From a virus (Duplodnaviria > Heunggongvirae > Uroviricota > Caudoviricetes), in the IMG/VR virus record IMGVR_UViG_2706794687_000010: a DNA stretch of 4,513 nt. One strand, 5' to 3'. Shown here one piece after another: positions 2,593-4,513 of the stretch. The translations under genes and the position numbers were made by a program. Under the pieces are notes generated by a model. The model had not been told where the DNA came from and did no database searches. It saw only the letters and a list, made by a program, of their open reading frames with translations. Position 1 is the stretch's first letter. Each line of letters opens with the position of its first letter.

Positions 2593-3984
2593 TCAAAAGA
2601 AACGCTCCATCTTACTGCTGTCGGTACGTGTATTGCTGTATCTGCGCGGCTGGGGCTGCCGCATTGGGGTGGAAAGAACCTGTGCGCTTTCCTGGTCCAC
2701 AGGCAGAAAATGTCCGTTATAAAAACGCCGGTAAATCGTCCCCAGAGAACCGTTACGTTGTTTCGTGATATTAATTTCTGCTATGCCTGTAGCCTGTGTA
2801 TCCGGGTTGTACACTTCATCCCTGTAAAGCATCAGAATGATGTCTGCATCCGCCTCTATTTCTCCGGAATTTTTCAGGTCTGAGTTCATGGGACGTTTAT
2901 TGGGTCTGGACTCCACACCGCGGGAGAGCTGGCTCAGCGCAATCAACGGAAAACCACCGGATTTTGCCAGGCCTTTAAGCCCCTTTGAGATTTCACCCAC
3001 GGCAAGGTCATGACGCCCCGTGGTTCGGGTTTTTATCAGCCCGAGATAATCAACCACCACCAGCGCCGTTTCCGGATGTTTAATCAGATGGTGTTTCGTT
3101 GTTGCGCATATCTCATCAATGGTCAGGTTCGCCTGGTCCACCATCCAGATATTGCGCCCGGTCATCCGCCCCACCCCTTGTGAGAAACGCGCCCAGTCTT
3201 CATCTTCAAAGTGAGCCACAGATTTCAGGCGTGATACTGGCATCCCTCCAGCCGCAGACACCATACGTTCACCAATCTGGATGTTCGCCATCTCCATGGT
3301 GAACAGAAGCACACCATGCCCCTGCTCAGTCACCTTGTCGATGATGTCCAGCGCAAGTTCGGTTTTCCCCATCGAAGGACGGGCGGCAATGAATACCAGG
3401 TCTCCGGGCTCCATACCGCCTGTTTTTGCGTCCAGTTCATCAATACCGGTCATCAACGTCCTGGATTTCTCCAGCCCCTGATTCCGGCATTCAACACGCT
3501 CAACCACTTCCGGAAGCACATCATCAATATGTACCGGCTGAATGACGCCCTTTCCTGTCGACAGTGTGACCATCATGTTCTGCGCATCCTTCAGGGCATC
3601 TTCAGCTGCTTCACAGGTATGCGCATCACGTAATTTCTGCAGCGCCTCATTCAGTGTTTTTTCTGCATCGCGCAGTGCGGCATTGCGCCGCAACGCTGCA
3701 ACATAGTGCTCCAGTGAAGACTTCACCCAGGTTTTACGCCCGGTATCAGTAATCACCGGGGCAAGTTCCGGCATCTCATTACACAACAGCACGGGGTCAA
3801 TCACTCCTGAAACACGGGCCTGTCTGCAGATGCCTGTGTAGATATCCCGATACGCTCGTACAGAAAAAATGTCCGCCGGTAGTGTGATCAGAATATCCAT
3901 CACTTCATGATCTGCCCCACGCAGAAAGAATGCGCCAATGACAGCGCCTTCCAGGTCATCATTACGCCAGACTGGTGTTGTCAT
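2593..3984 (-). CDS. replicative DNA helicase, DnaB family (phage-encoded, P22 gene 12 type), 463 aa
   Basis: The minus-strand start is the ATG at 3984 (MTTPVWRNDDLEGAVIGAFFL...), with GAGGTG about 8 nt upstream. Walker A is GDLVFIAARPSMGKTELALD and Walker B is LVVVDYLGLI. The C-terminal segment SDLKNSGEIEADADIILMLYRDEVY...ITKQRNGSLG is typical of DnaB. The stop is TGA at 2593-2595. Confidence 0.92.
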   Translation of the reverse strand: MTTPVWRNDDLEGAVIGAFFLRGADHEVMDILITLPADIFSVRAYRDIYTGICRQARVSGVIDPVLLCNEMPELAPVITDTGRKTWVKSSLEHYVAALRRNAALRDAEKTLNEALQKLRDAHTCEAAEDALKDAQNMMVTLSTGKGVIQPVHIDDVLPEVVERVECRNQGLEKSRTLMTGIDELDAKTGGMEPGDLVFIAARPSMGKTELALDIIDKVTEQGHGVLLFTMEMANIQIGERMVSAAGGMPVSRLKSVAHFEDEDWARFSQGVGRMTGRNIWMVDQANLTIDEICATTKHHLIKHPETALVVVDYLGLIKTRTTGRHDLAVGEISKGLKGLAKSGGFPLIALSQLSRGVESRPNKRPMNSDLKNSGEIEADADIILMLYRDEVYNPDTQATGIAEINITKQRNGSLGTIYRRFYNGHFLPVDQESAQVLSTPMRQPQPRRYSNTRTDSSKMERFF

Positions 3985-4088
3985 GCAGCCACACCTCTGA
4001 TACAAGAACGGTAGCTGGGCCAGTTGAACGACAACCAGTTGCGCCCCCCGTCTGTGATCCTGTCGGCAATGCGGGGGCTGATGAACGC
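3981..4088 (-). pseudogene. 3' remnant (35 codons) of a replication-initiator-like gene upstream of the helicase, truncated by IS2
   Basis: A minus-strand frame, ...AFISPRIADRITDGGRNWLSFNWPSYRSCIRGVAA-stop, ends in TGA that overlaps the helicase ATG (ATGA coupling). The frame enters the IS2 terminal repeat at 4089, so the 5' part of the gene is displaced or lost. Its identity as an O-like or primosomal initiator is inferred from position only. Confidence 0.4.
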
Positions 4089-4130
4089 TGGATTTGCCCC
4101 TATATTTCCAGACACCTGTTATCACTTAAC
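4089..4130. repeat. IS2 terminal inverted repeat (right end)
   Basis: The sequence matches the canonical IS2 end ...GGTTAAGTGATAACAGATGTCTGGAAATATAGGGGCAAATCCA in reverse complement. The adjacent outside bases AACGC (4084-4088) are the candidate 5-bp target-site duplication. Confidence 0.85.
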
Positions 4131-4513
4131 CCATTACTGGCTTGCTGCCGTAGATATTCCCGTGGCGAGCGATAACCCAGTGCACTATGCGGATGCCATT
4201 CGTTATAATGCTCGAACGCCTCTGCAAGGTTCTTTGCTGCCGTTAACCCGTCTGGTTTGGGCATGACACTGATGTAGTCACGCTTTATCGTTTTCACGAA
4301 GCTCTCTGCTATGCCGTTACTCTCCGGACTCCGCACCGCCGTGCTCTTCGGTTCAAGCCCCAACATCCGGGCAAACTGCCGTGTTTCATTAGCCCGGTAG
4401 CATGAACCATTATCCGTCAGCCACTCTACTGGAGACGCCGGAAGCTCGTTGCCGAAGCGGCGTTCCACCGCTCCCAGCATGACGTCCTGTACTGTTTCAC
4501 TGTTGAAGCCGCC
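4100..4513 (-). CDS. insD: IS2 transposase InsD (orfB), C-terminal part; 5' end lies outside the window
   Basis: Minus-strand translation gives ...[137 protein letters not shown]-stop. This is the IS3-family integrase core and C-terminus. It is in frame from position 4513. Confidence 0.93.

Follow-up and report, generated by a model that had tools for sequence, protein, structure and literature searches.

An IS2 element in Shigella sonnei joins truncated ypjA to the 3′ remnant of a phiP27-type helicase-loader gene

The stretch of DNA analyzed here (hereafter the window; 4513 nt from an IMG/VR virus record) ends inside an IS2 element, and this element directly adjoins the last codons of a gene that overlaps the start of a phage replicative helicase gene. 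The locus raises two questions: which gene has been cut, and by what kind of event. The original prediction was that IS2 had split a replication initiator gene (O-like, or primosomal by position) and that the prophage is therefore probably replication-defective. Shigella sonnei chromosomes, among them HE616528.1 (S. sonnei 53G), match the window with 100% identity, which allowed the junction to be followed beyond the end of the window. Our reading, which we hold with high confidence, is that positions 3981–4513 are the right junction of a complete hybrid IS2 in S. sonnei, at which recombination (by deletion or inversion) has joined the host gene ypjA to the remnant of a helicase-loader gene. 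The features of the window are collected in Table 1.

Table 1. Features of the window around the IS2 junction and in the downstream early genes
Feature	Position	Strand	Remarks
IS2, right-hand part	4089–4513	−	425 bp of the complete 1331-bp element; ORF 4100–4480; RefSeq label IS2
IS2 right inverted repeat	about 4089–4128		outer tip at 4089
IS2 right 5-bp flank	4084–4088		AACGC on the + strand, GCGTT in gene orientation
Helicase-loader 3′ remnant	3981–4088	−	35 codons plus TGA; residues 258–292 of 292 aa
ATGA overlap, loader stop/helicase start	3981–3984	−	helicase ATG at 3984–3982
DnaB-like replicative helicase, intact	2593–3984	−	463 aa, length as in intact relatives
85-aa ORF	2339–2596	−	surviving early-operon gene
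rusA	2183–2339	−	Pfam RusA in identical loci
Q antiterminator	1807–2193	−	128 aa; Pfam Phage_antitermQ; full-length phrog_79 match

Homology to intact relatives breaks exactly at 4088/4089. On the helicase side of this point, the minus strand carries an open frame running from 4088 to 3984 (35 codons, AFISPRIADRITDGGRNWLSFNWPSYRSCIRGVAA) and closed by TGA at 3983–3981, of which 33 of 35 residues are identical to residues 258–292 of the intact protein of relative L001. The frame is thus as first described: It abuts IS2, and it overlaps the helicase start by ATGA. The same 4-nt overlap is found in the intact relatives L001 and L002 and in phiP27, and a GAGG motif resembling a Shine-Dalgarno sequence precedes the helicase ATG by 9 nt. 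The claim that the translationally coupled replication gene was split by IS2 holds in that the gene ends abruptly at the element; it fails in that the gene is not simply divided into adjacent halves, as set out below.

The 35-codon tail has clear homologues at the C termini of phage replication proteins, the comparison that had been proposed for it, and the intact 292-aa homologues allow the whole gene to be classified. They match IstB_IS21/AAA+ (PF01695, 1e-15), phrog_50 "DnaC-like helicase loader" (1e-89), and the NCBIfam DnaC model NF005931 (1e-38, at 133 bits against an equivalog cut-off of 357 bits), and they align to residues 46–242 of Escherichia coli DnaC in the DnaB–DnaC structure (PDB 6QEL, 5e-31). 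They are also 96% identical to phiP27 L18, which is annotated "DnaC-like helicase loader." The retained tail itself aligns to DnaC residues 211–242, a segment that we take to include the arginine finger Arg220. The phage protein differs from DnaC in its N terminus of 85 residues and, at this locus, in the loss of the AAA+ core: Walker A (GxxGxGKN) and Walker B (DE) are missing, and in the intact proteins the corresponding GSCGTGKNH and IIDEVG precede the break. By these family matches, the cut gene is a phiP27-type DnaC/IstB-like AAA+ helicase loader of 292 aa and not a replication initiator. The copy at this locus is, on the same evidence, a gene fragment without its AAA+ core and is predicted to be a nonfunctional member of the family. 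The tail is already labeled by the NCBI PGAP pipeline: Two entries named "ATP-binding protein, partial [Shigella sonnei]" (P0157 and P0158) are identical to it in sequence, and among the 194 cluster members listed, up to 40 per cluster, the loader proteins labeled S. sonnei are solely C-terminal fragments of 33 and 38 aa.

The O-like identity originally proposed must accordingly be given up, since the intact homologue of the cut gene matches none of the initiator families with which it was compared and is DnaC-like instead; the alternative offered alongside it, a primosomal gene by position, proves correct. An initiator-like protein is encoded in the intact relatives by a separate gene, the next one upstream of the loader, which matches phrog_270 "replication initiation protein" (7.5e-66) and also the O-like phrog_9773. 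In L001 this gene occupies 6271–7179, and the initial 771 nt of the loader lie at 5490–6260 on the minus strand. The cut gene therefore resembles initiators of the lambda O and P22 gp18 type solely in its early-right operon position upstream of the helicase; its homologue has no similarity to them, and the initiator-like (O-like or DnaD-like) gene lies further upstream. If lambda, with its ori inside O, is a guide, the initiator gene of the intact relatives probably also carries the origin.

On the other side of the junction, the right inverted repeat tip of IS2 stands exactly where it had been placed, at 4089, and positions 4089–4513 read on the plus strand begin TGGATTTGCCCCTATATTTCCAGACA. 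Within the window, the minus strand carries the 3′ portion of orfB (DDE/rve transposase), with its stop codon at 4100–4102, so that the transposase genes are co-oriented with the helicase operon. The full element was recovered in locus L005 (8566–9896), where it is 1331 bp long with both transposase genes intact: orfA (HTH) at 8657–9022 and orfB (DDE/rve) at 8980–9885, their overlap holding an A6G frameshift site (GGGCAAAAAAGTGG). Its termini are imperfect inverted repeats (TAGACTGG at one end and CAAATCCA at the other), and a 32-nt inverted repeat with 78% complementarity was detected near both tips. Pfam searches on the full element in loci L003–L011 returned HTH_Tnp_1, HTH_21, rve, and rve_3, and its DNA is at least 96%–99% identical to E. 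coli sequences that RefSeq names "IS3-like element IS2 family transposase." In length, imperfect repeats, orfA/orfB organization, and A6G slippery site, this is a typical IS2 of the IS3 family. It is unlike one in a single respect, that the copy at 4089 has no 5-bp target-site duplication. This absence does not contradict its identity as IS2 and shows that the copy does not occupy a primary insertion site.

The flanks of the complete element bear directly on how it came to be there. In L005 the left flank reads GCTTTAGTTGC and the right flank GCGTTCATCAG. Next to the right tip we find AACGC on the plus strand, as the original prediction stated. The matching AACGC direct repeat expected past the left end is absent, and GTTGC stands there instead; the flanks GTTGC (left) and GCGTT (right) are found in each of the nine S. 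sonnei chromosomes and in the long IMG/VR contig L023, which like them is identical to the window, and no S. sonnei locus spanning the IS2 has a 5-bp duplication. Nor does the 5′ part of the loader gene, likewise expected beyond the left end, occur there in the nine chromosomes or in L023. What the left inverted repeat adjoins is a second truncated gene, the host autotransporter gene ypjA, of which the initial ∼1.36 kb remains here; this assignment follows the RefSeq annotation and the usual ygaQ-ileY-ypjCB-pinH-ypjA context. One E. coli strain provides a contrasting case, in which ypjA carries a genuine simple insertion of IS2 and its two halves lie side by side. The 3′ part of ypjA is available in locus L013, at 7881–10,976.

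An assembly artefact is unlikely as the source of the adjacency of ypjA and IS2, as nine independent complete assemblies agree on it. The other flank past the IS2 left end in the IMG/VR locus L016, an "N" scaffold join to an IS21-family element (IstA/IstB), was rejected as an assembly artefact. Separately, locus L014 departs from the other loci inside IS2. None of 5426 complete E. coli genomes covers the junction, and no ancestral simple-insertion state was found among them. The exact junction pattern also had no match in the GTDB species representatives, among which S. sonnei is probably not included; GTDB presumably folds it into the E. coli species cluster. The ypjA/IS2/loader junction appears to be fixed and lineage-specific in S. 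sonnei and could therefore act as a marker of that lineage.

The missing target duplication, together with two unrelated truncated flanks, leads us to infer a history with two IS2 copies. The host gene ypjA would have received one copy and the loader gene the other, and homologous recombination between the two copies would have left a single hybrid IS2 at the locus. By deletion or by inversion, this recombination would have stripped the locus of the first 257 codons of the loader (including the Walker A/B core), of the initiator gene just upstream, of the immunity and regulatory region, and of int/xis. A further cut, by IS4 in the portal gene, reduces the remnant to ∼10 kb. We found no ancestral intermediate of this history. 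In Shigella, deletions and inversions caused by recombination between IS copies have been well described (PMC8072062).

Three other accounts can be weighed against these data. A simple insertion, in which one IS2 splits the gene upstream of the helicase into adjacent halves with a 5-bp duplication, would agree with the way in which the IS2 tip adjoins a clean gene fragment that is in frame with the intact relatives, and an entry of IS2 into the loader at GCGTT must once have occurred. As a description of the present structure it is refuted, and we consider it next to impossible, since the left end adjoins truncated ypjA rather than the loader and the 5-bp flanks differ (GTTGC and GCGTT) in every one of the nine S. 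sonnei chromosomes as well as in L023. An adjacent deletion generated by a single IS2, residing in ypjA or in the loader and undergoing aberrant intramolecular transposition, would dispense with a second copy. IS-mediated adjacent deletions leave an IS without target duplication and with one new flank, and such an event would likewise yield what is seen here. However, IS2, as a member of the IS3 family, transposes by a copy-out/paste-in route via a circular intermediate, which does not typically produce adjacent deletions, and the prophage would have had to lie beside ypjA in the right orientation; this account is improbable.

The remaining account concerns the form that recombination took. 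If two inverted IS2 copies recombined, the left arm of the prophage (from int to the 5′ part of the loader) would have been carried elsewhere by inversion or translocation and would now lie beside the 3′ part of ypjA. This implies a reciprocal IS2, with TGGGCGTT joined to TAGACTGG on one side and CAAATCCA joined to GTTGC and the 3′ part of ypjA on the other. Because each end of the IS keeps its own flank, the local structure suits inversion as well as deletion. The int-proximal side of the remnant faces ypjA with no attachment site evident nearby, inverted IS2-like copies lie nearby in five of the nine strains, and IS-mediated inversions are abundant in Shigella genomes (PMC8072062). Further phiP27-like prophage regions are present in S. 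sonnei (PMC5447701, its Table 3) and could hold related genes. Against this, the reciprocal junction (loader 5′ part, GCGTT, and IS2 left end) had no match in IMG/VR, compared with 11 for the observed junction, although IMG/VR contains predicted proviral pieces only, so that absence there weighs little. Two similarly weak negatives are that conserved 44- to 46-mers from the 5′ part of the loader are missing from the proviral contigs of the 11 junction-carrying genomes, and that the listed S. sonnei loaders are the C-terminal fragments noted above. We regard a left arm surviving elsewhere as possible but rather doubtful.

What remains at the locus is the right arm of a phiP27-like prophage. In L005, homology to phiP27 extends from 9897, inside L18, to 19,861, in the portal gene, which is cut at residue 380 of 413 and followed by an IS4 end. 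These ∼10 kb comprise the loader tail, helicase, rusA, Q, anti-repressor, tRNAs, lysis genes, HNH, terminase, and portal. In phiP27, an Stx2e phage, L17 is initiator-like, L18 is the loader, and L19 is the helicase, and the window from 4088 to ∼2335 is 94% identical in DNA to its positions 12,042–13,795. The order of genes (loader, helicase, small ORF, Q, tRNAs, lysis, HNH, terminase, portal) is shared with phiP27 and with related Stx-converting and E. coli prophages, and the ATGA loader/helicase overlap with phiP27. Unlike phiP27, the locus keeps residues 258–292 only of the loader and has lost L17 and everything to its left; IS4 interrupts its portal gene, stx is absent, and where phiP27 has L22–L24 the locus carries rusA and an ORF6N anti-repressor cassette.

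The view that the prophage is defective (cryptic) is borne out. Of the loader, 88% is gone from the locus, as are the initiator, the regulators, and the integrase; the portal is truncated, and no int/xis, repressor, initiator, capsid, or tail genes are present within 10 kb on either side of the remnant. Judged from this gene content (no loader core, initiator, regulators, or int/xis), the remnant should be unable to initiate replication, load the helicase, excise, or make particles.

The genes downstream of the junction are in better condition. The helicase matches DnaB_C (8e-73), TIGR00665 (7e-92), and phrog_19 (4e-115). The expectation that Q, the ORF6N gene, and the tRNAs remain intact is upheld: Besides the full-length match of Q, the ORF6N/anti-repressor gene encodes 187 aa that match phrog_2379 over the full length, and the four tRNA genes are likewise intact. 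In the window, rusA is broken by a run of 41 N, which stands for 256 bp according to the mapping of identical loci. No sigma-70-like promoter or terminator is predicted at the IS2/loader junction, sites across the scan being no more numerous than in shuffled sequence, and the junction region folds no better than shuffled sequence (z = +1.06). With the native early promoter lost, the surviving early genes would be transcribed solely by read-through from IS2/ypjA or from chance promoters. One could suppose that the helicase, rusA, Q, the anti-repressor cassette, and the four tRNAs have been kept intact as an expressed, domesticated module of use to the host rather than as neutral debris; transcription would then come by read-through from the co-oriented IS2, and the helicase would use its own GAGG ribosome-binding site. 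We think this very unlikely. In a lesser variant, a prophage halved by an IS2–IS2 inversion could be rejoined by recombination.

The case is one of ordinary IS-mediated prophage and genome decay in Shigella, one more instance and nothing different in kind. As in other pseudogenization and prophage decay in this group, IS2 and IS4 bound the remnant and IS1 lies close by; the genes adjoining it are cut short, and the arrangement appears to be fixed throughout S. sonnei. In a parallel case from Shigella flexneri, it is the helicase that IS66 or IS3-family elements have interrupted, and the loader is intact. Beyond correct annotation the significance of the finding is small. The name given to the fragment should refer to the 3′ end of a DnaC-like helicase-loader gene rather than to an initiator, and the IS2 should be described as the rearrangement junction that links ypjA with the phiP27-like prophage remnant instead of as a simple insertion. 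Read in this way, the locus is an example of how, in the course of Shigella genome reduction, recombination between IS elements takes apart prophages and host adhesin genes together.

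On the plus strand, the window reads ...GGGGGCTGATGAACGC up to the break at 4088/4089 and TGGATTTGCCCCTATATTTCCAGACACCTGTTATCACTTAACCC... after it. The minus strand between 4089 and the end of the window codes for the C terminus of an rve-type transposase (stop at 4100-4102), and the E. coli RefSeq label for the same DNA is "IS3-like element IS2 family transposase." From 4088 to 3984, the minus strand carries a 35-codon open frame (AFISPRIADRITDGGRNWLSFNWPSYRSCIRGVAA), whose TGA (3983-3981) overlaps the ATG (3984-3982) of a 463-aa helicase ORF. Our reading of the sequence and its ORFs agrees with every sequence-level statement of the original prediction, including the flanking pentamer AACGC.

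In the uninterrupted E. coli prophages L001 and L002, the gene that shares bases with the start of the helicase gene is 879 nt long and labelled "ATP-binding protein"; the 35-residue tail of the window corresponds to residues 258-292 of its product (33 of 35 identical). DNA homology to the intact gene ends precisely where IS2 begins: the uninterrupted sequence reads ...GAGTTGTGG and then GCGTTCATCAG... across this point, while the window reads ...GGGGCAAATCCA and then the same GCGTTCATCAG.... The intact protein matches Pfam IstB_IS21 (PF01695; 1e-15), NCBIfam DnaC (NF005931; 1e-38, below the equivalog cut-off), PHROGs phrog_50 "DnaC-like helicase loader" (1e-89), and E. coli DnaC in PDB 6QEL (5e-31), this last alignment reaching the very C terminus. 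It is 96% identical to phiP27 L18 ("DnaC-like helicase loader"), which adjoins L19 "replicative DNA helicase." Intact relatives carry, directly upstream of this gene, one whose product matches phrog_270 "replication initiation protein" (7.5e-66) as well as O-like or DnaD-like families. Because of these family matches, the identity to L18, and the initiator-like gene upstream, the cut gene is the helicase loader gene and not the replication initiator gene thought to have been split.

By manual count on the E. coli DnaC alignment, the break falls at DnaC residues 210/211. The missing side includes both the Walker A and Walker B motifs, and the retained tail holds the stretch equivalent to DnaC Arg216, Arg220, and Arg237, of which Arg220 is the arginine finger. 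As predicted from sequence, neither piece could work alone. PGAP labels the tail (P0157, P0158) "ATP-binding protein, partial" or "AAA family ATPase, partial [Shigella sonnei]."

The helicase protein has exact matches in thousands of assemblies. Using exact helicase matches, we fetched and compared nine complete chromosomes and one contig (L003-L012), to which the window is 100% identical on either side of its N-run; one of them, L005, is HE616528.1, Shigella sonnei 53G (PMC5447701). The IS2/loader junction occurs in none of 5426 complete E. coli genomes, and the exact junction is found in 11 IMG/VR proviral contigs, each with an identity to L005 of 99.6% or more. The 41-N run at window 2260-2300 stands for 256 bp of rusA that are present in otherwise identical S. 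sonnei chromosomes (L005:11685-11940); since it is shorter than the real gap, no single offset maps window coordinates on its two sides, and rusA intactness (123 aa) was judged from chromosomal loci only.

The L005 IS2 (1331 bp) has imperfect terminal repeats and an A6G site within the orfA/orfB overlap. To its left, an ORF starting MNRTSPHYCRRSVLSLLISALIYAPP... continues up to the IS2 end. Corresponding E. coli DNA, named "ypjA: adhesin-like autotransporter YpjA/EhaD" in RefSeq, sits in the usual ygaQ-ileY-ypjCB-pinH-ypjA context, and about 1.36 kb of this 4.6-kb gene is present beside IS2. The original prediction expected an AACGC repeat and the 5′ half of the interrupted gene beyond the IS2 left end. 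Instead, the 5′ part of the loader is not found immediately left of IS2 in L005, truncated ypjA stands there, and the 5 bp next to the element read GTTGC at its left end and GCGTT at its right end in nine of nine chromosomes and in the IMG/VR contig L023. Nor does the same reading frame continue past the left end, the first of the outcomes named beforehand as counting against the prediction. Two draft-derived IMG/VR proviral contigs (L014:5578-7513 and L016:5780-7910) stop following the shared structure within IS2 or at the left end of the element; in L016 an "N" scaffold join leads into an IS21-family element. The alternative structures are probably assembly artefacts at repeats. As a control, E. 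coli VG48B2 (L013:5036-10976) has a simple, independent IS2 insertion in ypjA with the halves adjacent. This insertion lies ∼150 bp 3′ to the position hit in S. sonnei; IS2 appears to have targeted ypjA more than once.

IS2 joins two unrelated truncated genes without target duplication; rather than a simple insertion, it marks a site of recombination with ypjA. The hybrid copy probably arose when an IS2 in ypjA recombined with a second one in the loader gene. As a general rule, recombination between IS copies in direct repeat gives deletion and between inverted copies inversion, and such events are common in Shigella (PMC8072062). Either event leaves each IS end its own flank, so local structure does not separate the two. 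Inversion, by which the missing part would be relocated and not lost, seems rather unlikely to us: S. sonnei does carry other phiP27-like regions (PMC5447701), but the reciprocal junction pattern occurs in none of the IMG/VR proviral contigs, none of the 11 junction-bearing genome ids recurs among proviral contigs with two conserved 5′-loader 44-46-mers, and the S. sonnei-labelled proteins among the loader-cluster members listed are C-terminal fragments only. These three weak negatives favour loss of the missing arm.

Features of the locus in window and L005 (S. sonnei 53G) coordinates
Feature	Location	Strand	Remark
IS2	L005 8566-9896		
orfA	L005 8657-9022		
orfB	L005 8980-9885		
Start of phiP27 DNA homology	L005 9897		Inside L18
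End of phiP27 homology	L005 19861		Portal gene residue 380 of 413
IS4 end (TAATGCCGATCAG...)	Directly after L005 19861		
Four tandem tRNA genes	Window 263-573	Minus	
Promoter-like site	Window 612-583		tRNA cluster
Strong terminator-like hairpin	Window 687-666		3′ of ORF6N gene
sRNA-Xcc1	Window 1364-1447	Minus	Rfam gathering-level
C4 antisense RNA	Window 1581-1664	Minus	Rfam gathering-level, 71 bits
isrK	Window 1690-1766	Minus	Rfam gathering-level, 77.5 bits
Terminator-like hairpin	Window 1711-1695		Brackets isrK
c4-a1b1 targets	Window 1727-1779	Minus	Rfam gathering-level
Promoter-like site	Window 1802-1773		Brackets isrK

The remnant measures ∼10 kb, with IS2 and IS4 as borders and three IS1 copies nearby. 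It comprises helicase, an 85-aa ORF, rusA, Q, the ORF6N anti-repressor, four tRNA genes, holin, lysozyme and Rz, HNH, TerS, TerL, and a 60-aa ORF; no integrase, repressor, initiator, capsid, or tail genes of this prophage lie within 10 kb on either side. From the same point inside the portal-truncating IS4, three different structures follow among S. sonnei strains: an inverted IS2-like copy, 96% identical, from about 20985 to the locus end (L003, L006, L007, L009, L011), an intact IS4 (L004, L008, L010), or another IS3-family element from 20983 (53G). Such variation suggests that IS elements are still rearranging the right edge of the remnant.

The Rfam matches (window 1364-1802, minus strand) sit between Q and the ORF6N gene. 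From its sequence, this segment resembles an antisense cassette of the P1/P7 C4 type or the Gifsy-1 IsrK type that would control the downstream anti-repressor (phrog_2379). The tRNAs are Gly-TCC, Thr-TGT, Arg-TCT, and one with a CAT anticodon, called Met by ARAGORN and tRNA-Ile by RefSeq in relatives.

Lost at the locus are 88% of the loader, the initiator, the immunity region, and int/xis. In lambdoid phages, the initiator gene usually carries the origin. The remnant should be unable to replicate autonomously or excise because the loader core, initiator, immunity region, and int/xis are gone; the prophage would indeed be "cryptic," as proposed, but from a cause far broader than the interruption of a single gene. 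The helicase gene still has a GAGG motif of its own, 9 nt ahead of its ATG. The loader frame runs open only nine codons into IS2, out of frame with orfB, so translational coupling of loader and helicase would be effectively lost. The IS2 transposase genes are co-oriented with the helicase operon. Prediction gave neither a terminator-like nor a promoter-like site at the junction, and RNA from this stretch has no better fold than shuffled sequence. Read-through transcription from IS2 is possible.

Shigella flexneri-type genomes (L026-L034) present the mirror image: the 292-aa DnaC-like loader is intact (6001-6879), whereas the neighbouring DnaB-like helicase (6876-8150) is cut to 424 aa (414 aa at a contig end) by IS66 or IS3-family elements, an independent IS strike on the same replication module. 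Three useful corrections emerge: the gene is that of a helicase loader and not of an initiator, IS2 marks a recombination junction with ypjA and not a simple insertion, and the host is S. sonnei. The locus is an instance of the standard, already known IS-mediated decay of prophages and genes in Shigella.
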